DNA of 64,000 nt, from contig CAUJCN010000001.1 of NCBI GenBank assembly GCA_963169855.1, forward strand, positions 175,645 to 239,644. Reading direction: 5' to 3'. The position numbers and the translations under genes were made by a program. Of this stretch, positions 2,411 through 58,045 are shown in pieces. Position 1 is the first letter of the stretch. The number at the start of each line of letters is the position of its first letter. This DNA comes from Patescibacteria group bacterium (lineage in GTDB: Bacteria > Patescibacteriota > Dojkabacteria > J137). Under the pieces are notes generated by a model. It ran no database searches, had not been told where the DNA came from, and worked only from the letters and a program-made list of their open reading frames with translations.

Positions 2411-3148
2411 ATGAAACTCAAAAATAAAAAGATTGGATTATCAATTAGAGGAGGCGGAACAAAATCCGTTGCTTATGCAGGGGTTTTGAAAGCATTTGAA
2501 GAATTAGAAATACCAATTCACGCAATCGTATCTGCAAGTGGCGGCTCAGCAGTTGCAACCTATCACGCACTAGGGTTAAAACCAGAGCAGATTCTTGAAA
2601 ATTTAAAAAAAGTTCGACCTTATTCAATATTTTCATTAAGATCATTAATTAGAGGACGTATTGCAGATTACAGAGAATGGGAAGAGTTTGCGCAACAGGC
2701 AACACAAGGTAAACGAATAGAAGATACTCAGATAAAACTATTTATTCAAGCGACAAATGTAAATACGCACGAACTAGAGTACATCGAGACCGGTGATTTA
2801 GCCAAGGCAGTAGTAGCATCCTCTGCAATTTTATATCCATACAAATTTAAGCACAGACAATATGTTGATGGTGAATACTCACCTGCATACGGAATTGATA
2901 AGCTCGAAGAATTCGGATGCGACATAACATTTATTATTAATCTACATGAAGGAAGAAAAAGATTTTCCTTATTAGATATTGCGAGATTATCTCAAGCGAA
3001 AGCGTTTAAGTTCGACGAAAATCTCCATCCAGCTGATTTCAAGATTTCAGTAAGGATTCCAGCAACATTTCCTTTCTCTCTGAAAGGTATGGATAAGATA
3101 TTCGACCACGGTTACAAGCAAGCTCTCAGGTTTATACAAAATCTGTAA
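2411..3148 (+). CDS. patatin-like phospholipase
   Basis: GLSIRGGGTKSVAYAGVL (oxyanion GGGxK/R) and SASGGS (GxSxG) motifs. Confidence 0.7.
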   Translation: MKLKNKKIGLSIRGGGTKSVAYAGVLKAFEELEIPIHAIVSASGGSAVATYHALGLKPEQILENLKKVRPYSIFSLRSLIRGRIADYREWEEFAQQATQGKRIEDTQIKLFIQATNVNTHELEYIETGDLAKAVVASSAILYPYKFKHRQYVDGEYSPAYGIDKLEEFGCDITFIINLHEGRKRFSLLDIARLSQAKAFKFDENLHPADFKISVRIPATFPFSLKGMDKIFDHGYKQALRFIQNL

Positions 3149-3225
3149 TAGGTTAAAATGTAAATATTACTTATTCCTGAATCAAGTTCAGGATTAGATT
3201 GAATTTTACTTATTATTAATATTTT

Positions 3226-3492
3226 ATGAGTAGCACCGCAAAAAAATTCATTGCAGGAATTATAATATTAGTAGTAGGAATCTTAGTTGGGTTGACAGTT
3301 CCAACAGTTATTAAGAAGTCTCAAGATTTTGATAGATACGCAAAGGCCAGAGAAGCAGCACCAGATAAAGAAGAATTCGATAGAAATTTTGATGCGATGG
3401 TTCAATGGTTTGAAGATTATAAAACAAACAATCCTGGAGCAACAGACGAGGATGCACAAGAAGCTTTCGAGGAGCTTTGGGATCGAAATTAA
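3226..3492 (+). CDS. small membrane-anchored hypothetical protein
   Basis: 88-aa ORF with N-terminal TM helix. Confidence 0.4.
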   Translation: MSSTAKKFIAGIIILVVGILVGLTVPTVIKKSQDFDRYAKAREAAPDKEEFDRNFDAMVQWFEDYKTNNPGATDEDAQEAFEELWDRN

Positions 3493-3516
3493 GATATCCT
3501 AATCAAAATCAATAAT

Positions 3517-3936
3517 ATGGCACACTATTTCGCAGGAGTAATTTTACTTAATCAATGTGGATTTCTTTTAGCCCAACATCGAGACAACGCTCCAGAAATT
3601 TTGGGAAAGAATCAATGGTGTGTTTGTAGCGGAGAAAAAGAAAATTTCGATAAAGACATTTTTGAAACTGGTACAAGAGAGTTGTTCGAAGAAACACGGT
3701 ACAAAATTCATCCTTCAGAACTAAAACTTCTTTTAGAAGATAGTTTCGTTAACGAGCTTGGAAACGAAGTTCATATTACTGTTCTCATTGCAGATTACGA
3801 TGGTCAACAAACTATTGAATGTCGCGAAGGACAAGAGATCAGATTCATCAATCCGAGTGAAATTGAAACTTTAAGTTGGTACAACAACAACCAGAACTAT
3901 TTTAAAGAAGCTTATAACCATTATCTCAAAAGGTAA
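3517..3936 (+). CDS. NUDIX hydrolase
   Basis: Nudix-box-like SGEKENFDKDIFETGTRELFEETRY (Gx5Ex7REUxEExGU pattern). Confidence 0.55.
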   Translation: MAHYFAGVILLNQCGFLLAQHRDNAPEILGKNQWCVCSGEKENFDKDIFETGTRELFEETRYKIHPSELKLLLEDSFVNELGNEVHITVLIADYDGQQTIECREGQEIRFINPSEIETLSWYNNNQNYFKEAYNHYLKR

Positions 3937-3990
3937 ATAGTAGTTCGGAAACTATTTACAAATTATTCTTTTCCATTCTATAATCCACGC

Positions 3991-4341
3991 ATGTTCGACA
4001 TGCCAGCTCCTAATGAGCAACCAAAATTAACTCTAGATCAACTTATCGAAGCAGCTGCTGAAAGAGAGCCTATTTTCATTAGAGTAGAGTGCATTTCTAA
4101 CGAAACTGGAGAAAGACATGTTTTAGATTTTGTGTTTGAGAAATCACGCACTCCTTACATGAGAATAAAAAGTGATAAAAGAAAGTTCTTCCTAACCACT
4201 GAAAGAGAAGCAATAGCTGAAGAGAATTTAAAAGTTTTGGCTAATCAAATCAGACAAATAACAGGAGGCGTTTACAGCATCCATCCATTTTACGGATTAG
4301 TTTGGGATACTCGGAACGCAACAATTTCAGAAATCGATTAG
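3991..4341 (+). CDS. hypothetical protein
   Basis: 116-aa ORF, codirectional, typical composition. Confidence 0.4.
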   Translation: MFDMPAPNEQPKLTLDQLIEAAAEREPIFIRVECISNETGERHVLDFVFEKSRTPYMRIKSDKRKFFLTTEREAIAEENLKVLANQIRQITGGVYSIHPFYGLVWDTRNATISEID

Positions 4342-6658: not shown

Positions 6659-6875
6659 ATTCGTGATATAATATATATGTATAAATCATCAATATTTTGT
6701 GCTTTATACAGATCTTTAACAAGGAAGTAACTTACTACGAATTGGACCATTGGTTGTGGGCTTTAGGCGCTTCTGTTCCGTACTTGATACGGAATCTCAT
6801 GAGCATCTAAAGCTCACACCAGTACCAATTTCGGAGTACTGGCAAATCGGAGCACAACAAGGAGAAAGTTCTACC

Positions 6876-7358
6876 ATGAAGAAGCTCATCGTCATTTCGC
6901 TGCTCATCGTCGTTTCGCTGCTCGCCGTTTTCAACGCATTCGCCCAGGAACAAACCGTCGTCATCCAGAATGTCGTCGAGTGCCCCGTCACCACCATAGG
7001 CTGGTGGGGATTAACAGGAGAACTCATCAACGACGCCCCAACGAGGGACGTAATAGTCCATTGGGACGACACCAACCAACGCTCCGCGAAGGAACTCGGC
7101 GTCGACCCAGAGCAAGGGTGGATCGTCTGGTGCACGGAGAGCGATATGCTCAGCCGCGTTGCCACAGTCGAGGGCGAGCCGAACCGAATCACTATCGATG
7201 GTGACGAATATTGCCAAGTGGCGGGCTTCGTTACTAACCTCCCGGATCGACGAGTTGTTGGCGTTACGGCGGCCGCGGCGTATGCATTCACGGAATGTCT
7301 CGGGGAGACGATCGTCGAAAGCTCATACGTAAGGACTTTCGGGATCGTCTTCGACTAG
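6876..7358 (+). CDS. small secreted 4-Cys protein encoded in a GC-rich island
   Basis: RBS GGAGAAAG 7 nt before ATG; signal peptide MKKLIVISLLIVVSLLAVFNAFA; about 50-60% GC with high GC3, versus about 33% in flanks; ORF track lists 6750..7358 from a TTG. Confidence 0.5.
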   Translation: MKKLIVISLLIVVSLLAVFNAFAQEQTVVIQNVVECPVTTIGWWGLTGELINDAPTRDVIVHWDDTNQRSAKELGVDPEQGWIVWCTESDMLSRVATVEGEPNRITIDGDEYCQVAGFVTNLPDRRVVGVTAAAAYAFTECLGETIVESSYVRTFGIVFD

Positions 7359-7369
7359 CCAGCGTTACT

Positions 7370-7405
7370 TCCTCCCGGACCCGCTTAATCGCGTGGTCCG
7401 GAGGA
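7370..7405 (+). terminator. GC-rich hairpin terminator after island ORF
   Basis: TCCTCCCGGACC...GGTCCGGAGGA imperfect 11-bp stem followed by T-rich stretch. Confidence 0.45.
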
Positions 7406-7439
7406 CTTTAATCTTAAATTTCAAATACTTCTCTTTTTT

Positions 7440-7851
7440 GATCTTTTATTCTTAAACCTTCAATCTTTTTAGATATTGATCAATCTCTTAGTAAATTATA
7501 TAATCTAGATATTCACAACGATAAAGGTTCCCAGCCTTTGGAGTGAGAATGGAACTACTATTGTCATATTGAGCCTGTCGAAATATAGACAATTGGATAA
7601 CATTCCTCAGAACTCAACTGAGATAACACAAATGAGAACTAGTAAATTGCTAGTTACAGAGTCTTTAATAGCAATATTAAGGAAAAGCAAGATGGTACCA
7701 CGATCGTGTACACCGAAGCGTTTGCGTAGGTTGTAAGCCTCGTTCTTGCTAAATACTATTACCCGTAGTGTTTAGCAAGAATGGGGCTTTTTTTGTAGCT
7801 AAAGGCGTCAAATCGCCTCTGGCTAATATATTTAAATTTTATTTTGTAATT
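7440..7851 (+). promoter_or_regulatory. proS 5' leader with candidate attenuator (T-box-like motif plus long terminator hairpin)
   Basis: about 410 nt noncoding; GAUGGUACCACG at 7691-7702 resembles T-box GGUGGUACCGCG; 19-bp hairpin 7735-7789 followed by U-tract, 57 nt before proS ATG. Confidence 0.35.
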
Positions 7852-9324
7852 ATGGACGACAAGAAAATTACTCCAAGAGCCGAGGACTATTCTCAATGGT
7901 ATCTTGATATTGTAGAGAAAGCTGAACTTGCAGAAAACTCAGCGGTTAGAGGATGCATGGTAATTAAACCTTACGGTTACGCTCTTTGGGAAAACTTTCA
8001 AAAAGTATTAGATGGAAAGTTCAAAGAACTTGGTCACGTAAATGCTTACTTTCCTTTGTTAATTCCAAAATCATTTTTAACAAAAGAAGCAAAACATGTT
8101 GAAGGATTTGCTCAAGAAACAGCAGTTGTAACTCATTACAGATTAAAAACTGATCCAGTAACAAGAGAAGTTATTGTTGATCCAGAAGCAAAATTAGAAG
8201 AAGAATTAGTTATCAGACCAACATCAGAAACCATTATTTACGATACTTACTCAAACTGGATTAAATCTTACAGAGATTTACCATTACTGATTAATCAATG
8301 GGCAAATGTTTTAAGATGGGAAATGCGAACAAGACCATTCTTAAGAACAGCAGAATTTCTATGGCAAGAAGGTCACACAGTTCATGCGACTTTAGAAGAA
8401 GCTGAAGAAGAAGCAATTCAAATGCTGAAAGTTTATCAGTGGTTTGCAGAAGAATATCTTGCGATTCCAGTTATCCCTGGTCAAAAATCAGAATCTGAAA
8501 AATTTGCAGGAGCATTACGAACTTATACAATCGAAGCAATGATGCAGGATGGCAAAGCTCTTCAAGCGGGAACTTCACATAATTTAGGTGATAACTTCGC
8601 AAAAGCTTTTGATATAAAATTCTTGGACAAAGATGAAACTGAGAAATATGCTTGGCAAACAAGTTGGGGATTAAGCACAAGAATGATCGGAGCATTAATT
8701 ATGACTCACAGCGATGACAAAGGATTAGTTGTTCCACCAAAAATTGCACCAACTCAAATTGTTATAGTTCCAATTTGGAAAGATGATTCTCAAAAAGAGT
8801 TAGTATTAGCAGAGGCTAAGAAATTGAAAGAACAATTTGCAGGATTCAGCGTAAAATTAGACGATAGAGACTACAACACTCCTGGAGAGAAATTCTACCA
8901 GTGGGAAAAGAAAGGAGTGCCTTTGAGAGTAGAAATCGGACCAAAAGATATCGAGAAAAATCAGGTCGTATTTGTAAGAAGAGACAGCGGAGAAAAATCT
9001 TTTATCCCAATGAGTGAAGTTTCATCTCAAGCTAAATCCACACTAGATAATATCCAATCTTCACTTTACGAAAAAGCAAAGGCGTTTAGAGATTCTAGAG
9101 TTTACGAAGTAAATTCATACGAAGAATTGAAAGATGTTGTAGAAAATAAAAATGGATTTGCTTTAGCATACTGGGATGATTCTGCAGAAAACGAAGCGAA
9201 GATTAAAGAAGAAACTAAAGCCACAATCAGATGTATTCCTTTTGAGCAGAATGGAGTTTCTGGAAAATCAATTATTTCTGGAAATGAAACTAATCATAGA
9301 GTAATTTTTGCAAAAGCTTATTAA
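7852..9324 (+). CDS. proS: prolyl-tRNA synthetase, archaeal/eukaryotic-type class II
   Basis: [26 protein letters not shown]...[15 protein letters not shown]-terminus, motif 2 [15 protein letters not shown]-terminal zinc-binding-type domain; ORF track start 7768 is an upstream in-frame ATG inside the terminator hairpin. Confidence 0.9.
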
Positions 9325-9330
9325 TTGAGC

Positions 9331-10190: not shown

Positions 10191-10679
10191 ATGATCTGGA
10201 CTAAACCTCACATTTCAAAAATTTACGAAGCGGCTGGTGCGATTGGAGACAATCGCATCGAAGTTTCGGATTCAGAAAATTCTGCAAAGATGTTTTCTTC
10301 TTCTAAAGGCAAGTTCTACACAGTTACCTGGAACGATGATTTATCCCAAATGATGAGTAACGATAACAGTGCTTACTGGACTGGACAAGTCAGCTATCCA
10401 ATGATTTCAATTTTAATGCTGAAAGGTAAAATTCAATTTGATCCAAAAATCTGCGATTTACTAAAAGGATTTGCATGGAAAGATATAAATCAGACCCCGT
10501 ATAAGTTACGGGGTAAAAATGATTTCGACAAAACAGTGGAATTTGTTCTTAACGAACTTGAGAATAGAGGAGAAGATGTCGAATTTGTAAAAAGTGAAAC
10601 TCAGAATATTGCTGACCAACTTGATAGTTTGCAAATCGAGCATTTAGGAAACAGATTAAAACCACCAAAGGGATACTAA
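10191..10679 (+). CDS. hypothetical protein
   Basis: 162-aa ORF. Confidence 0.4.
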   Translation: MIWTKPHISKIYEAAGAIGDNRIEVSDSENSAKMFSSSKGKFYTVTWNDDLSQMMSNDNSAYWTGQVSYPMISILMLKGKIQFDPKICDLLKGFAWKDINQTPYKLRGKNDFDKTVEFVLNELENRGEDVEFVKSETQNIADQLDSLQIEHLGNRLKPPKGY

Positions 10680-21199: not shown

Positions 21200-21263
21200 G
21201 TTGAAGCACTCGAAATGTTCAACAAAAGAATGAATGATGTCATGGTGAGGCACTCGAACCATC
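21200..21263. repeat. two tandem hairpins of the ATGGT-TCGANNNNCCTC-ACCAT family (left flank of GIY-YIG gene)
   Basis: GTTGAA-GCACTCGAAAT-GTTCAAC and GATGTCATGGTGAGGCACTCGAACCATC. Confidence 0.7.
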
Positions 21264-21569
21264 ATCATTCTTTCTCTCTCCTAGACTATAACGTTGTGCT
21301 AACTTACTAATAAGATCGTAATCGTTTTTAATTAAAGCTTCTTTCTTAGCTCTAGACCACCTCTTAATTTGTTTTTCAAAAGCAATCGCATAATTTATAT
21401 CATTGAATTCAAAAGTGGCACAAACAATAATCGGTCTTCTTTTGTAAGTGTAACAACGATTATTCAATCCATTAGAATGCTCAGAAATTCTTCTATCTAA
21501 ATTATTAGTTACTCCTATATAAAAAGTATCGTCAATACACCTAAGAATATACACATAAAAAGACTTCAT
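21240..21569 (-). CDS. GIY-YIG nuclease family protein (COG2827/YhbQ-like)
   Basis: FYVYILRCIDDTFYIGVTNNLDRRISEH signature. Confidence 0.65.
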   Translation of the reverse strand: MKSFYVYILRCIDDTFYIGVTNNLDRRISEHSNGLNNRCYTYKRRPIIVCATFEFNDINYAIAFEKQIKRWSRAKKEALIKNDYDLISKLAQRYSLGERKNDDGSSASP

Positions 21570-21632
21570 ATTTGAAGAATACTACTAACCTCTGAGAAGT
21601 TCTTTGTCATGAAATACAAATTCCTTCTTTGT

Positions 21633-21657
21633 ACGGTTCGAGAGCCTCACCGTGACA
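21633..21657. repeat. hairpin repeat of same family, inverted relative to 21236-21263 (right flank of GIY-YIG gene)
   Basis: ACGGTTCGAGAGCCTCACCGTGACA; reverse complement matches left copy at 21/23 positions. Confidence 0.7.
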
Positions 21658-39359: not shown

Positions 39360-41222
39360 TTACTCCCCCTTCCTCAACTCATACATCCTCACAATCTCCT
39401 CAACACTATTAGGGTAATCCTTATCTCGATTCCAAATCTTTAATCTTGGAAATCGAATAGACAACCCTTTTGTTGAATCATCGTTTTTTACTTTTGCAGG
39501 AATTCCTTTCGCTGCTGTGTGGTTTGGGCTTCTTGTAATTTCGTCTGCAACAATTTCCATAACTAATTTTGGTTTTACCCAAACGTCTGGAACTAAAGTT
39601 TTATCTACAACATAGTTTTCTGGTTTCTCGGCCACGAAATGTTTCTGTAAGTCTGCATTAATTGTTGGAGCTTGTTCATCTGTAAATCCGCTTCCAACTT
39701 TTCCAATAGAGTAGTAGGTATCGTTACTTGCATCGTAGACCCCTGCCAACATCGCACCAAATCCGTATTTATTTCTCGCACCTTGTCCGTAGAAATATCC
39801 CAACACAACAACGTCGATTGTATCTACCAAGTGACTTTGAGTATTAGCCTTCAGCTTAATCCATTTGAAATTTCTTGTTCCAGGTTCGTATGTAGATTTT
39901 TCTTCTTTAGTAATTATTCCTTCTAAACCTGCATTCACTTTGCTGAAGAAATATTCTTCCAACTCAGCTTCTGATTGCATTTGTTTTGTCTCCAGCATCT
40001 TTAATGAGCCCTGAGCTTTGAGCTTTGAGCTTTGAGCTTCCTCCTTAGAGTTCTGAGAAAGCAAAGACTCCAGTATTCTCAGCCGTTCCTCTATCGGTTC
40101 CTGAGTTATATCTTTTCCATTCAAATACAAAACATCAAAACACATTGCTCGGACAGGAATATCTTTTGCATAAGTTTCCACATCGTACTTTCTTCTTCGC
40201 TGCATTGTTTCCTGATAAGTTTTGTAATTACCATCTTCTTCTACACCAATAATTTCTGAATCCAAAACAACAGAATCAACACCAAGATTTTTTACAGATT
40301 CCAAAAGCTCTGGGAAGTTGTCTGTAAGTCTTTCCATATTTCGACTGTAGACTTCGGCCTCACCAGTTTTTTTATCAAAATGAATTTGACCACGTAGTCC
40401 ATCCAACTTTGGCTGAACAAAACACTTCGGCATTCTTTCCCAAACAGAAGCTGCAGAATCTTCTCGCTCCACAAGCTTAGATGCGATTGGAACTCCAGGA
40501 ACAATTTTAATTTTTGATAGATTTTCAATTGCTGAAGATTTATCAGTGAGAATAATTTCCGCAAGTTGACCAGCATCTGCTCTTGCTCCAAAAGCCTGAT
40601 CAATTAATTTTCTTGTAGATTTATCTCCAGACACAACAAAAGAAAGAGAGTCGAGTAGAGTTTTGTCGCTAGCACCAAGCCTTAAGTCTCCTAAAATAAT
40701 TCTAGTTGTGAATTTAATTTCCTGAGGTTCAAGAATTCTGAAAAGGTTTTCGTACAATTTTAATTTTGCATCTTGAGATCCTTTCCCAGAAGTTTGAGTT
40801 ATTTTAATTAAGAATGAGTGTAGTTCTTCGATAGTTTCGACTTTGATGTCTGTCACATCGAGCTTGTCGAGATGTGTTTCACCATTTTGGTTATCATGCT
40901 TCGACAGGCTCAGCATGACATCTCCTTTGAATGTTTCTCGAATTTCTGCTGCAACATTCCCCATATCCCCAAGTTTACCCAACATCGACTTAACATCTTC
41001 AGAAGTAAATTCCTGAAGTTTTCTGATAATCATTTTGTCTGAGAAGTTGAATTCAATCGGCTCGAATTTTGGTGCAACTCTACCTTGAAGAAAGTAGATA
41101 AAAAATCGAGCTTCTTTTGGTGAAAGCTGGGTTAGAAAATCCGCGGTTAAAGTGGTTAGATCGTTTCTAGAACTTGTGGTTTCGAGTTTGTTTAAAAAAG
41201 CTGAGAGTTCTGTTAGTTTCAT
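39360..41222 (-). CDS. ATP-dependent DNA ligase
   Basis: adenylation motif I KLDGLRGQIH, EGIITK, WIKLK motifs. Confidence 0.8.
   Translation of the reverse strand: MKLTELSAFLNKLETTSSRNDLTTLTADFLTQLSPKEARFFIYFLQGRVAPKFEPIEFNFSDKMIIRKLQEFTSEDVKSMLGKLGDMGNVAAEIRETFKGDVMLSLSKHDNQNGETHLDKLDVTDIKVETIEELHSFLIKITQTSGKGSQDAKLKLYENLFRILEPQEIKFTTRIILGDLRLGASDKTLLDSLSFVVSGDKSTRKLIDQAFGARADAGQLAEIILTDKSSAIENLSKIKIVPGVPIASKLVEREDSAASVWERMPKCFVQPKLDGLRGQIHFDKKTGEAEVYSRNMERLTDNFPELLESVKNLGVDSVVLDSEIIGVEEDGNYKTYQETMQRRRKYDVETYAKDIPVRAMCFDVLYLNGKDITQEPIEERLRILESLLSQNSKEEAQSSKLKAQGSLKMLETKQMQSEAELEEYFFSKVNAGLEGIITKEEKSTYEPGTRNFKWIKLKANTQSHLVDTIDVVVLGYFYGQGARNKYGFGAMLAGVYDASNDTYYSIGKVGSGFTDEQAPTINADLQKHFVAEKPENYVVDKTLVPDVWVKPKLVMEIVADEITRSPNHTAAKGIPAKVKNDDSTKGLSIRFPRLKIWNRDKDYPNSVEEIVRMYELRKGE
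40006..40040. repeat. heptanucleotide tandem repeat (GAGCTTT)n inside ligase CDS
   Basis: gagccct gagcttt gagcttt gagcttt gagcttc; encodes EAQSSKLKAQGSL on coding strand. Confidence 0.7.
40895..40920. repeat. hairpin-family copy embedded in ligase CDS
   Basis: CATGCTTCGACAGGCTCAGCATGACA; the 12-mer TCGACAGGCTCA is also at 47943 and, reverse-complemented, at 7569. Confidence 0.6.
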
Positions 41223-41315
41223 ATTAAGATTCTATCATAGAGGAGAGCAAGTTTGCTCAGGCATTTGACAACCTTAAACTCTGCGATATAACATCTCGTC
41301 ATATTAATAAAACTT

Positions 41316-43393: not shown

Positions 43394-43495
43394 GAAAGAA
43401 CCCCTCTTGTGCTTCGCACTTTCTCCCTGTCATCCTGAGGCTCTCGAAGGGTTGAAAGGGGAGATGCCCGATTTATCGGGAAGAGGGGTTCTTTC
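43394..43495. repeat. GC-rich structured element with perfect 15-bp terminal inverted repeats
   Basis: GAAAGAACCCCTCTT ... AAGAGGGGTTCTTTC enclosing internal hairpin CCCGATTTATCGGG. Confidence 0.6.
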
Positions 43496-47850: not shown

Positions 47851-47911
47851 AGATCCCGTACCACCGACAGATCCCGCACCACCGACAGATCCCGCACTTG
47901 ATGCGGGATCT
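47851..47911. repeat. 18-bp tandem repeat ending in perfect hairpin
   Basis: AGATCCCGTACCACCGAC / AGATCCCGCACCACCGAC / AGATCCCGCA-cttga-TGCGGGATCT. Confidence 0.65.
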
Positions 47912-47936
47912 AATTAAAGTTTTACATATATCGCAA

Positions 47937-47962
47937 CATGGTTCGACAGGCTCACCATGACA
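47937..47962. repeat. hairpin-family copy upstream of alaS
   Basis: CATGGTTCGACAGGCTCACCATGACA. Confidence 0.65.
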
Positions 47963-47993
47963 CGATATAATCCTGTATATTAATTTACACATC

Positions 47994-49922
47994 ATGAAAA
48001 CGTCAGAGCAAATCAGAGAAGAATTTTTGAAATTTTGGGAAGAATCACCTAGAAACGCCAAGCTTGTTCCGAACATGTCATTAGTGCCAAATAACGATCC
48101 TACTTTACTTTTCGTAAATTCAGGAATGTTCCCACTTGTTCCTTATTTAGGAGGACAACCACACCCTTTGGGAACGAGACTTTATAATTTGCAAAGATGC
48201 GTAAGAACAATCGATATTGATGATGTAGGGGACAATCGACATTTAACTTGTTTCGAAATGATGGGCAATTGGTCACTTGGGGATTTTACAAAAGCTGAAC
48301 AAATTCCTTGGATTTTGGAACTTCATGTAGAAAGATACGGATTCGATCCATCCAGACTATACATCTCGGTTTGGGGAGGAGACGATTCTATTCCAAGAGA
48401 CGACGAAGCAATCGAACTTTGGAAAAAGGCATTCAGGAAATACGGCATCGAAGCTGAATACTCAGAAGACAGATCAAACTTACCAAAAGATTTAGAAGAA
48501 GGAAAAACTTGGAAGCCAAGAATCTTTCCATTCGGAAAGAAAGAAAATTGGTGGCAAAGAGGACCTGATGTTGTTGGAGAACTTGGAGGACCTTGTTCAG
48601 AAATTTTCTTTGATACAGGAAAAATTGTTCACGAGCAGGAAAAGTACGACATTAACGATGACTCATGGAGATTCATCGAAATCGGAAACAACGTTTTCAT
48701 GGAGTACAGATTTGATGAAAGCGGAAAGTGGGTTCAGATGGAAAAGAAGAACATCGACTTTGGGGGAGGATTTGAAAGAGTAGTTAAGTGTATTCAAGAT
48801 CAAGAAGACTTCTTTGGAACAGACATTTTCATGCCTTACATTCAAAAAGTTGAAGAGCTTTCTGGAATGAATTACAAAGACGGAAATGGAAAAGATCACG
48901 ATAAATCAAACTCATTTAGAGTTATTGCGGACCACATTAGAACAAGCGTTTTAATGATTGGAGACGGAGTTGTTCCTTCAAACAAAGACCAGGGATATAT
49001 TCTAAGAAGACTTATAAGAAGAATGATCCGACACGCTATGAAAGTTGGAATTCAAGATAATTTTGCAGAAGATTTGGCAAAAGTTGTAATCGAAAAAATG
49101 ACTCACGGTTACCCTCATTTACAAGAACAGAAAGCTCGAATTATTTCTGAATTAGTTAGAGAAGAAGAAAAGTTCTCAAAGACAATAAGCAATGGTTTGA
49201 GAGAATTAAACAAACTTGTAGACGAAGTAAATAATTCTCAGAGAACTTCCCTGCCTGCCGGCAGGCATGGGATTTCGGGAGGAGACGCTTTCAACTTGTA
49301 CGAAACTTACGGTTTTCCAGTAGAACTTACATTAGAACTTTTGAAAGAAATGGGAATTTCTGAATTTTCTATGGATGAATTCAACGCTGAACAGGAAAAA
49401 CACCAATCCGATTCTAGAGCTGGAGCAGAGCAGAAGTTTAAAGGAGGTTTAGCTGATCAGTCAGAAGAAACTACAAAACTTCATACAGCTCATCACTTGT
49501 TACTTGCAGCTTTACAGAAACTTGTTAATCCTACTATCAAGCAGAGGGGAAGTAATATTACTGCTGAAAGATTAAGAATTGACTTCAATTTGGATAGAAA
49601 ACTAACTGAAGAAGAAATCAAGAATGTAGAAGAATGGGTTAACGCAAGAATTGCAGAAAAGTTACCTGTTGTAAGATTAGAAATGAAAAAAGAAGAAGCT
49701 GAAAATATTGGTGCACAAATGGAATTCGGAGCTAAATATCCAGATGTCGTATCAATTTATTACATTGGGAATTCAGTGGAAGAATCTGTTTCTAAAGAAT
49801 TCTGCGGAGGTCCACACGTTTCCAATACTTCTGAACTTGGTGAAGGCGGAAAAACTTTCAAGATTGTAAAAGAAGAAAGTAGTGGAAGCGGAATCAGAAG
49901 AATAAAAGCTTCTTTAGTTTAA
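47994..49922 (+). CDS. alaS: alanyl-tRNA synthetase, short form lacking C-Ala domain
   Basis: N-terminal catalytic-domain motifs (LVPNNDPTLLFVNSGM, RHLTCFEMMGNWSLGDF), editing HxxxH (HTAHHLLLAAL) and CGGPHV; 642 aa. Confidence 0.85.
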   Translation: MKTSEQIREEFLKFWEESPRNAKLVPNMSLVPNNDPTLLFVNSGMFPLVPYLGGQPHPLGTRLYNLQRCVRTIDIDDVGDNRHLTCFEMMGNWSLGDFTKAEQIPWILELHVERYGFDPSRLYISVWGGDDSIPRDDEAIELWKKAFRKYGIEAEYSEDRSNLPKDLEEGKTWKPRIFPFGKKENWWQRGPDVVGELGGPCSEIFFDTGKIVHEQEKYDINDDSWRFIEIGNNVFMEYRFDESGKWVQMEKKNIDFGGGFERVVKCIQDQEDFFGTDIFMPYIQKVEELSGMNYKDGNGKDHDKSNSFRVIADHIRTSVLMIGDGVVPSNKDQGYILRRLIRRMIRHAMKVGIQDNFAEDLAKVVIEKMTHGYPHLQEQKARIISELVREEEKFSKTISNGLRELNKLVDEVNNSQRTSLPAGRHGISGGDAFNLYETYGFPVELTLELLKEMGISEFSMDEFNAEQEKHQSDSRAGAEQKFKGGLADQSEETTKLHTAHHLLLAALQKLVNPTIKQRGSNITAERLRIDFNLDRKLTEEEIKNVEEWVNARIAEKLPVVRLEMKKEEAENIGAQMEFGAKYPDVVSIYYIGNSVEESVSKEFCGGPHVSNTSELGEGGKTFKIVKEESSGSGIRRIKASLV

Positions 49923-57410: not shown

Positions 57411-57486
57411 TGGTGCCAGGGGGCAGACTTGAACTGCCGACACCTCGCTCTTCAGGCGAGTGCTCTACCAGCTGAGCTACCCTAGC
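57411..57486 (-). tRNA. tRNA-Phe (GAA), CCA encoded
   Basis: manual cloverleaf: acceptor GCUAGGG/CCCUGGC, anticodon stem CUCGC/GCGAG, loop CUGAAGA, T-loop UUCAAGU. Confidence 0.85.
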
Positions 57487-57546
57487 ATGTCGAAGTATTT
57501 ATTTCCCATCTTCCTTAACTCTACCCCTACTACACAAAGTTTCGTA

Positions 57547-57624
57547 GGACTAAGATCTTCTTTAATTCGGCTACATTTCATTTGCCTCATTAAGAATCTC
57601 TTGAGCAGCTGAGCTACCCTAGCA
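57547..57624 (-). repeat. 78-bp tRNA-upstream repeat A, ending in a copy of tRNA-Phe nt 1-19
   Basis: 70/70 with one mismatch to repeat B, then CAGCTGAGCTACCCTAGCA identical to the 5' end of tRNA-Phe. Confidence 0.8.
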
Positions 57625-57767
57625 TTAAGTAAGATTCAAGACTAAAGATTAAAGATCTAAAAAAATTAAGATTTTTGAATAAAACCCACTTACTGTTTCA
57701 AATCTTCGTTTCAGAACATGACTTGCCCTTTTGAATCTTTGATCTTTCAGCTTTTAACTTTTTTTAA

Positions 57768-57840
57768 TGGGCAGTATAGGATTCGAACCTATGACCATCC
57801 CGGTGTAAACGGGGCGCTCTACCAGCTGAGCTAACTGCCC
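57768..57840 (-). tRNA. tRNA-Val (UAC), CCA not encoded
   Basis: acceptor GGGCAGU/ACUGCCC, anticodon loop UUUACAC, T-loop UUCGAAU. Confidence 0.8.
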
Positions 57841-57888
57841 AATTCGGGACTTTGTATTCTAACATTCTATTGGCTCTACTCCCTAAAG

Positions 57889-57966
57889 GGACTAAGATCT
57901 TCTTTAATTCGGCTGCATTTCATTTGCCTCATTAAGAATCTCTTGAGCAGCTGAGCTAACTGCCCA
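57889..57966 (-). repeat. 78-bp tRNA-upstream repeat B, ending in a copy of tRNA-Val(UAC) nt 1-19
   Basis: same 70-bp core as repeat A, then CAGCTGAGCTAACTGCCCA identical to the 5' end of the tRNA-Val. Confidence 0.8.
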
Positions 57967-58045
57967 TTTTGGGCTATCCCAAGATCAAATGATTAACTTG
58001 GTCTTGAGATTATAGCCGAAAATTCAAAATTCTTAAAGTACTAAT

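Follow-up and report, generated by a model that had tools for sequence, protein, structure and literature searches.

The proS leader of a Dojkabacteria-like bacterium is very probably a truncated T-box transcription switch missed by the standard RNA-family scan

The gene proS, for an archaeal-type prolyl-tRNA synthetase (ProRS), lies at 7852-9324 on the + strand of the analysed stretch of 64,000 nt, called the window here. Its product of 490 aa starts at an ATG at 7852 and carries the Pfam domains tRNA-synt_2b, HGTP_anticodon and ProRS-C_1. Two genes follow across narrow gaps, at 9325/9331-10161 and 10191-10679 by the gene calls on the identical contig L003, and both probably share the transcription unit of proS, the regulated gene. 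All features described below are on the + strand. The window has 35% G+C and uses the standard genetic code. Its UvrC finds its closest matches in proteins assigned to Candidatus Dojkabacteria (66%, 62% and lower), and by these best hits the host most likely belongs to the Dojkabacteria (WS6) group of the CPR/Patescibacteria. The nearest upstream ORF stops at 7358 and leaves 493 nt of noncoding DNA before proS; the original prediction had counted about 410 nt, which holds from 7440 onward. The leader has no open frame in any of the six, even with UGA read as sense. An alternative code that would make it coding was rejected, since TGA is the stop of 10 among 48 long ORFs and no leader frame opens under such a code. 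The locus was found identical in four independent assemblies (L003, L004, L034, L035), and the sequence is therefore not an assembly artefact. Folding of 7500-7860 is far better than that of shuffled sequences (z = -6.8). An Rfam scan of the whole window at the gathering score returned three tRNAs only. No tRNA-Pro gene was present in the sequences examined, and the homologous loci retrieved carry no tRNA genes. As for the leaders of other aminoacyl-tRNA synthetase (aaRS) genes, to which the original prediction had pointed, the comparison covers the window, where alaS is the sole other such gene; its leader is short and has no T-box-like element of the proS type.

A sigma-70-like promoter was located at 7476-7504 (TTGATC 7476-7481, 17 nt, TATAAT 7499-7504; 10 of 12 matches in the consensus scan), and the transcript is predicted to start near 7511. 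The TATAAT is kept in the loci L005 and L033, and sequence conservation starts there. At the far end, the terminator scan and the folds place an intrinsic terminator at 7735-7794, composed of a 24-bp hairpin (7735-7758 with 7766-7789) and a U5 tract (7790-7794). The 19-bp hairpin first described (AAGCCUCGUUCUUGCUAAA / UUUAGCAAGAAUGGGGCUU) is present and extends to 24 bp (AAGCC...GGCUU); the U5 after it and the distance of 57 nt from its end to the proS ATG are both as claimed. Terminator equivalents are found in L005, L033, L014, L013, L012 and L036. The spacer between terminator and proS (7795-7851) is poorly conserved, contains a small hairpin at about 7797-7826 and has no Shine-Dalgarno sequence. 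In the alignment with L005 and L033, identity is lost directly after the U-tract and the spacer is unconserved up to the start codon. A separate hairpin, at about 7384-7410, belongs to the upstream ORF. For this reason, and because conservation begins at the -10 box, the fallback considered earlier, in which the 24-bp hairpin would simply end an upstream transcript, does not fit.

Homologous leaders were gathered by walking through ProRS relatives. Six other lineages (L005, L033, L014/L015, L013, L012 and L036) carry them ahead of the proS operon, with flanking genes that vary among the loci. Leader identity to the window is 86% over 7495-7796 in L033 and 77% in L005, and among close relatives conservation spans the -10 box (TATAAT) to the terminator U-tract. 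At L014/L015, BLAST sees the Stem III/T-box block only. Three more loci, L012 (50.9 bits), L013 (39.0 bits) and L036 (35.8 bits), were matched by R2, a small covariance model that was made from the window group and covers the discriminator region; it ties L013 to the window at E 1.4e-8. In the window, R2 scores 73.7 bits at the antiterminator, its only match there with filters off. The element is always oriented into proS. It lies directly before proS in the window, L005 and L036; in the others one short gene stands between the two, coding for a 110-aa tRNA_bind protein (L033, L014) or for a product of 96 aa (L013) or 239 aa (L012). The ProRS relatives L006-L008, L011 (76% identical), L009 and L010 are without the element, even with filters off. 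Wide ProRS searches of genome contigs and of metagenome contigs gave one distant (58%) locus each, again without it, and a 16-mer search of viral contigs returned 17 chance matches and no homology.

The first structured element of the leader is a short Stem I (7513-7546), made up of a C-stem, a K-turn, an NC-stem and an apical 7-nt loop. The C-stem UCAC/GUGA (7513-7516 with 7543-7546) is followed by the K-turn motif, in which a 3-nt bulge AAC (7517-7519) precedes GA (7520-7521) opposite GA (7541-7542), and by the NC-stem UAAAGG/CCUUUG (7522-7527 with 7535-7540). The K-turn (GA motif) is predicted from the arrangement 5'-UCAC-AAC-GA-...-GA-GUGA-3', and its flanking helices covary. Helices 1 and 2 of Stem I are 100% paired, with changes on both sides in 3/4 and 4/5 pairs respectively, and a second model, R1, detects Stem I in family members only. 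The apical loop UUCCCAG (7528-7534) is a putative Specifier loop, with CCC at 7530-7532 followed by A7533, or, in the alternative frame, CCA at 7531-7533 followed by G. Four members (the window, L033, L005 and L014) share this loop unchanged on a covarying stem; the loop reads CCUCCUA in L013 and CCCCA in L036. CCN followed by A is present in every apical loop, as CCU-A in L013 and as CCC-A in L036. We infer that the apical loop is a Specifier carrying a proline codon, in keeping with proS as the regulated gene. A putative specifier loop with a Pro codon, as envisaged earlier, was thus located; it sits at the tip of the short Stem I instead of forming an internal loop. Stem I consists of 5-6 bp followed by the 7-nt loop, and no distal platform (AG bulge plus distal loop, interdigitated T-loops) is present. 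Two other readings were discarded. What could be read as an AGYGA 'AG-bulge' at 7542-7546 is base-paired and forms the 3' side of the C-stem of the K-turn. The Specifier candidate GAA-CUC-A, a leucine codon in the loop 7611-7617, is strand S2 of the pseudoknot described below and is unconserved in L014, L013 and L036.

Stem II (7547-7605) is closed by a base helix GAAUG/CAUUC (7547-7551 with 7601-7605) with inner flanks GAAC...AUAA. The base helix is 100% paired, and 5/5 pairs are changed on both sides. A check for an S-turn (GAA / AGUA) showed GAA after the 5' strand in most members, and AUAA, CAAA or CUAA on the 3' side. The apex of Stem II is occupied by a copy of a dispersed REP-like hairpin (7561-7592; GTCAY-stem-GAGSCNNTCGA-stem), and the copy announced for this leader was thus recovered. 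With <=2 mismatches allowed, the window has 5 occurrences of the loop core of this hairpin, TGAGCCTGTCGAA, where 1.3 would be expected, and none of 100 shuffles reaches 5; a search that also considers the stem brings the number of copies in the window to six. The hairpin is also at the Stem II apex in L033 and L005. It is absent from L014, L013 and L036, and is therefore taken as a tolerated insertion, not as a core part.

An H-type pseudoknot resembling Stem IIA/B follows at 7606-7636, with the order CUCAG-AA-CUCA-A-CUGAG-(A-rich loop)-UGAG. It consists of S1 CUCAG/CUGAG (7606-7610 with 7618-7622), S2 CUCA/UGAG (7613-7616 with 7633-7636) and an A-rich loop 3 at 7623-7632. The topology is shared by L014, L013, L012 and L036, with differing sequences. 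Both pseudoknot stems are 100% paired (both-sided changes in 4/5 and 5/5 pairs). The pseudoknot, of about 31 nt, exceeds the canonical 21 nt and has no F-box sequence (CCGUUA/CGUCA). Between it and Stem III lies an extra hairpin, H4 (7637-7655; AACUAG-UAAAUUG-CUAGUU), which is found in 7/7 members with unrelated stem sequences, 6/7 of its pairs being changed on both sides.

Stem III is set within a RAG - Stem III - AA string (7659-7685), in which GAG (7659-7661) is followed by a 9-bp Stem III with a GCAA tetraloop (7662-7683) and by AA (7684-7685). All members have GAG or AAG before Stem III and AA or GA after it, with a covarying stem of 8-9 bp. The Stem III loop is GNRA in all of them, and 6/9 pairs are changed on both sides. 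The antiterminator (7686-7750) adjoins it and is composed of A1 (AGCAAGA/UCUUGCU, 7686-7692 with 7744-7750), the T-box bulge UGGUACC of 7 nt directly 3' of A1 (7693-7699), and A2 (ACGA/UCGU, 7700-7703 with 7740-7743), which holds a structured insert of 36 nt (7704-7739). The T-box-like motif GAUGGUACCACG, also given as GATGGTACCACG, is indeed present at 7691-7702. The bulge is UGGUACC in 5/7 members and UGGUAAC in L014 and L036. The heptamer TGGNACC is not rare alone, with 7 occurrences in the window, and the motif exceeds chance by its context and conservation, not by the heptamer itself. A1 and A2 are supported by covariation in a discriminator-only alignment of seven members. Beside the bulge, A2 closes with an A-U pair in five members (the window, L033, L005, L014 and L012) and with G-C in the other two, L013 and L036; none has G-U there. 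The A2 insert has a length of about 40 nt in both L005 and L033, reaches about 80 nt in L014, and is missing in L013 and L012.

The antiterminator and the terminator are mutually exclusive, the terminator 5' strand (7735-7758) including the 3' strands of A2 and A1 (7740-7750). The unconstrained minimum free energy (MFE) fold of 7656-7765 consists of Stem III, A1, an unpaired UGGUACC and A2. When the terminator 3' strand is added, the MFE fold becomes the terminator, at -54.5 kcal/mol against -33.2 kcal/mol for the enforced antiterminator. These folds suggest that the antiterminator would form first and would then be displaced unless it is held. The alternative antiterminator pairing on which the original prediction depended was thus found, with covariation, as the MFE fold until the terminator 3' strand is made.

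Covariation was assessed on a core alignment (A10) of six sequences from six lineages, which was built by hand around the structure with variable inserts replaced by N. Three of the six sequences are close relatives, and a few unpaired nucleotides of L036 were dropped for register. Nine helices are supported; 98.6% of cells form standard pairs and 38/51 pairs have both-sided changes, counts that lean toward the model because the alignment was hand-made to fit the structure and holds six lineages, three of them close. Each of the nine helices has compensatory changes. None of 500 shuffles reaches any of the five measures, and in controls with the partners slid by 1-3 columns pairing falls to 33-45%. 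Even so, L014, L013 and L036 keep the topology with wholly different sequences in their helices, which is hard to explain otherwise.

T-box riboswitches are the classic example of an RNA that senses which tRNA it meets and whether that tRNA is charged. The presence of such an element was checked with Rfam RF00230, which gave no match in the window, either at the gathering score (93 bits) or at E<=10, and none in L014 and L036, even at E<=10. The homologous leader of L013 was matched over the full model at 39.6 bits (E 1.1e-7), far short of the 93 bits required. In this alignment, a 7-nt loop takes the place of the 76 distal Stem I positions, the K-turn is matched to the Stem I base of the model (GCAAUGAAGCGA...UCGCAGAGC against gCgaUGAaagGG...CCcugGAGc), and Stem II, Stem III and the T-box/A2 segment UAAGGUGGUACCGUGAGA...CUCACCCUU are also covered. 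The T-box model thus fails on the window itself and reaches the family through a homologue, at a sub-gathering score. Permissive Rfam scans of 7300-7950 and 7500-7800 returned chance-level hairpins only (DUF3800-VIII, GibS, BTnc201, microRNAs), and those of L014 and L036 were likewise at chance level.

The element is in the 5' leader of an aaRS gene, on the same strand as proS. Published T-boxes have a K-turn under the Specifier, a Stem II with a pseudoknot, and a RAG/RRRxG-Stem III-AA purine string (PMC7583486, PMC11297988). Their discriminator has a 7-nt bulge with UGGN at the 5' edge by A1, followed by ACC (PMC7583486, PMC11297988), and apical-loop Specifiers are documented for T-boxes with a short Stem I (PMC7583486). 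Predicted counterparts of the published tRNA-contacting parts are all found in the proS leader. Homologous leaders, covariation, a Specifier-like loop and the switch folds together support the original proposal of tRNA-dependent, T-box-like attenuation of proS, and the leader is very probably a truncated T-box transcription switch that the standard RNA-family scan misses.

We consider it highly likely that 7511-7794 is a T-box-type tRNA-responsive transcription attenuator for proS. Points that speak against this reading are the lack of an RF00230 match in the window, L014 and L036, the low score in L013, the missing distal Stem I platform and F-box, the A-U pair beside the bulge in place of G-U, and the hand-made alignment of few lineages. 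Transcription would begin at the sigma-70-like promoter, and the K-turn-based short Stem I would offer a proline codon (CCC/CCA, then a purine) to the anticodon of tRNA-Pro. Stem II and the H-type pseudoknot probably support presentation of the codon. The RAG - Stem III - AA string and the antiterminator would then capture the free 3'-ACCA of uncharged tRNA-Pro, UGGU pairing with A73-C-C-A. Bacterial tRNA-Pro has the discriminator base A73, and the UGGU bulge fits a tRNA with this base. With the antiterminator held, the 24-bp terminator would be blocked and RNA polymerase would enter proS. Charged tRNA-Pro would not be accommodated, so that the far stabler terminator would form and transcription would stop at the U residues 7790-7794. 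Thus proS would be read when proline charging falls, and transcripts would stop at about 7794 when tRNA-Pro is mostly charged. Uncharged tRNA is proposed as the holder of the antiterminator because of T-box precedent, that is, anticodon-Specifier and NCCA-bulge pairing.

The same attenuator logic could be served by a ligand other than tRNA, such as ProRS, a K-turn-binding protein or a small molecule, with the UGGUACC bulge as a structural relic. The missing elbow-binding platform, the conserved extras (H4 and the always-GNRA Stem III loop) and the tRNA-binding-domain protein co-transcribed in L033 and L014 all count in its favour, and we nevertheless regard it as improbable. In its form of a tRNA-Pro anticodon-arm mimic for ProRS binding it was rejected because the Stem I loop displays a codon (CCN), not a tRNA-Pro-like anticodon (NGG). 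That the region is an independent trans-acting sRNA gene of ~285 nt, with its own promoter and terminator and merely beside proS, appears very unlikely. Such a gene would agree with conservation bounded by the -10 box and a strong terminator, with the unconserved spacer to the ATG, and with weak sub-threshold similarity to the Bacteroides sRNAs GibS and BTnc201; these matches are, however, at chance level (19.5 bits for a gathering score of 115, and 17.6 bits for one of 105), seven contigs from six lineages all have the element directly before the proS operon and in the same orientation while other neighbouring genes vary, and an antiterminator alternative would be purposeless in a stand-alone sRNA. 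Hardly credible is an upstream-transcript terminator or leader-peptide attenuation with a T-box-like motif matched by chance, as the seven TGGNACC copies and the lack of an Rfam T-box in the window might suggest, since the upstream ORF with its own hairpin ends 377 nt earlier, no conserved proline-rich ORF is present in the leader (a 55-aa TTG ORF at 7569-7736 has few prolines and crosses covarying helices), and covariation in nine helices excludes a chance motif.

The T-box reading of the proS leader bears on how such switches keep pace with transcription. In the current kinetic view, the distal platform of a long Stem I grabs the tRNA elbow fast enough to beat RNA polymerase. According to a review, the platform is generally required in transcriptional T-boxes, and short forms are typical of actinobacterial translational control (PMC7583486). 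If the attenuator is as proposed, a short-Stem-I T-box with a strong intrinsic terminator would directly test the kinetic argument for a long Stem I, and tRNA-sensing riboswitches would be extended to the Candidate Phyla Radiation (CPR). It is possible, if rather doubtful, that these leaders form a distinct T-box subclass confined to Dojkabacteria-like CPR, which terminates without the elbow platform and is compensated by H4, by the GNRA-capped Stem III, by the enlarged pseudoknot or, in some lineages, by a co-transcribed Trbp111/CsaA-like tRNA-binding protein. On the T-box reading in general, the standard Rfam model misses a whole branch of the family, and aaRS regulation in uncultivated bacteria is therefore probably under-annotated.

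Among known systems, the actinobacterial ileS T-boxes with a short or 'ultrashort' Stem I, described from Mycobacterium and Nocardia (Sherwood et al. 2015; 6UFG/6UFM), can be compared as far as they are presented in PMC7583486. Like these, the proS leader has a short Stem I that rests on a K-turn, and an apical-loop codon followed by a purine. Both lack the elbow-binding double T-loop platform, and both have a pseudoknot after Stem II and the succession of RAG - Stem III - AA, A1, a 7-nt UGGN-ACC bulge and A2. The actinobacterial elements act on translation by sequestering the ribosome-binding site, whereas the proS leader ends in a strong intrinsic terminator. It also differs from them in regulating proS and in its CPR (Dojkabacteria-like) host, in a pseudoknot of about 31 against 21 nt without an F-box, and in having H4 and an always-GNRA Stem III loop. 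A full-text search of one literature library found no report of an ultrashort Stem I coupled to a terminator, and no paper pairing T-box riboswitches with Patescibacteria or CPR.

With the canonical Firmicutes T-boxes (RF00230), the proS leader shares its position before an aaRS gene, the K-turn, Stem II, Stem III and the T-box sequence (AGAUGGUACCACG against GGGUGGUACCGCG). The likeness, Pro-specific members included, extends to an exclusive antiterminator/terminator pair and to a proline codon as the presumed Specifier. Unlike them, the proS leader has no long Stem I with a Specifier internal loop, AG bulge and distal loop, and the pair closing A2 is A-U or G-C in place of the canonical G-U. 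Pro T-boxes in TBDB prefer CCU (PMC7778990); the putative Specifier in the window is CCC/CCA in contrast to this preference, and L013 has CCU. The staphylococcal glyS T-box offers a parallel in its 'stem Sa' (PMC9177973), also a lineage-specific structured insertion within the antiterminator domain, from which the A2 inserts of the proS leaders appear to differ in position and sequence. New are the combination of an apical-specifier short Stem I with an intrinsic terminator, the extra hairpin, the A2 insert and the CPR host. The element is thus best regarded as a structurally new variant among T-box riboswitches, proline-specific and acting by transcription attenuation, in Dojkabacteria-like CPR bacteria.

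A dispersed family of REP-like hairpins is represented by six copies in the window, three on the plus strand (7563-7589, 21239-21265 and 43429-43455) and three on the minus strand (21630-21656, 40893-40919 and 47935-47961). Each element is laid out as GTCAY followed by a variable stem of 3-4 nt, a conserved loop, GAGSCNNTCGA, and the complementary stem. In three lineages, Stem II of the putative T-box in the proS leader carries a hairpin of this family. A small GIY-YIG-type gene (~21290-21590, minus strand) has a copy on either side. The ATP-dependent DNA ligase gene (ORF 39360-41231) contains the minus-strand copy at 40893-40919 in frame, and the peptide encoded by it reads ...DVMLSLSKHD...; a degenerate second copy (...HLDKLDVT...) is found shortly downstream. 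The hairpin in the ligase gene may be a repeat that was inserted into the coding region and tolerated.

The only other aminoacyl-tRNA synthetase gene in the window, alaS (47961-49922), encodes a short-type protein of 653 aa, for which PRK01584 is the best NCBIfam model. Its leader is short and a search there for a T-box-like element found none. Thus, T-box control is not general among the synthetase genes of this genome segment. The interval separating alaS from its neighbour includes tandem GGGATCTGTCGGTGGTRC units preceded by a hairpin, GATCCCGCATCAAGTGCGGGATC (~47860-47915, minus strand). A similar CCCGCACTTGATGCGGGATC hairpin is seen 3' of the T-box terminator at L033 (1396-1422), the locus of a ProRS relative with a homologous proS leader. 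The GATCCCGCATCAAGTGCGGGATC and CCCGCACTTGATGCGGGATC hairpins may constitute a second small repeat family. Repeats were also observed at 57411-57967, where two 70-nt copies, 99% identical (57547-57616 and 57889-57958), form a direct repeat adjoining tRNA-Phe and tRNA-Val, and a 20-nt repeat resembling a tRNA 5' end occurs at 57469, 57606 and 57948. These may reflect partial duplication of a tRNA gene.

The ORF located 5' of the proS leader (6867-7358, plus strand) encodes a 163-aa product with a signal-peptide-like start and no match in Pfam; a hairpin is present nearby (~7384-7410). The G+C content of this ORF is 56.5%, compared with 35% for the genome. Homologues of its product, 163 and 161 aa in length, are encoded at the same position at L005 (another leader-bearing relative) and L033, respectively, and these genes are likewise G+C-rich (52-53%). 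At L010, the locus of a ProRS relative devoid of the leader element, ~1.5 kb 5' of proS (2476-4000) contains neither a called gene nor a T-box. This region could represent a decayed gene, or the genome could use a different genetic code.

In four relatives, small genes are found between the T-box and proS. At L013 and L012 these encode a Cys-rich product of 96 aa and a product of 239 aa, respectively, and the ATG of the small gene immediately adjoins the terminator U-tract. In two other lineages (L033, 1458-1790; L014, 1152-1484), the position is occupied by the gene for a 110-aa tRNA-binding-domain protein (PF01588) which, from its location, would share the T-box regulation of proS; the protein is Trbp111/CsaA-like.
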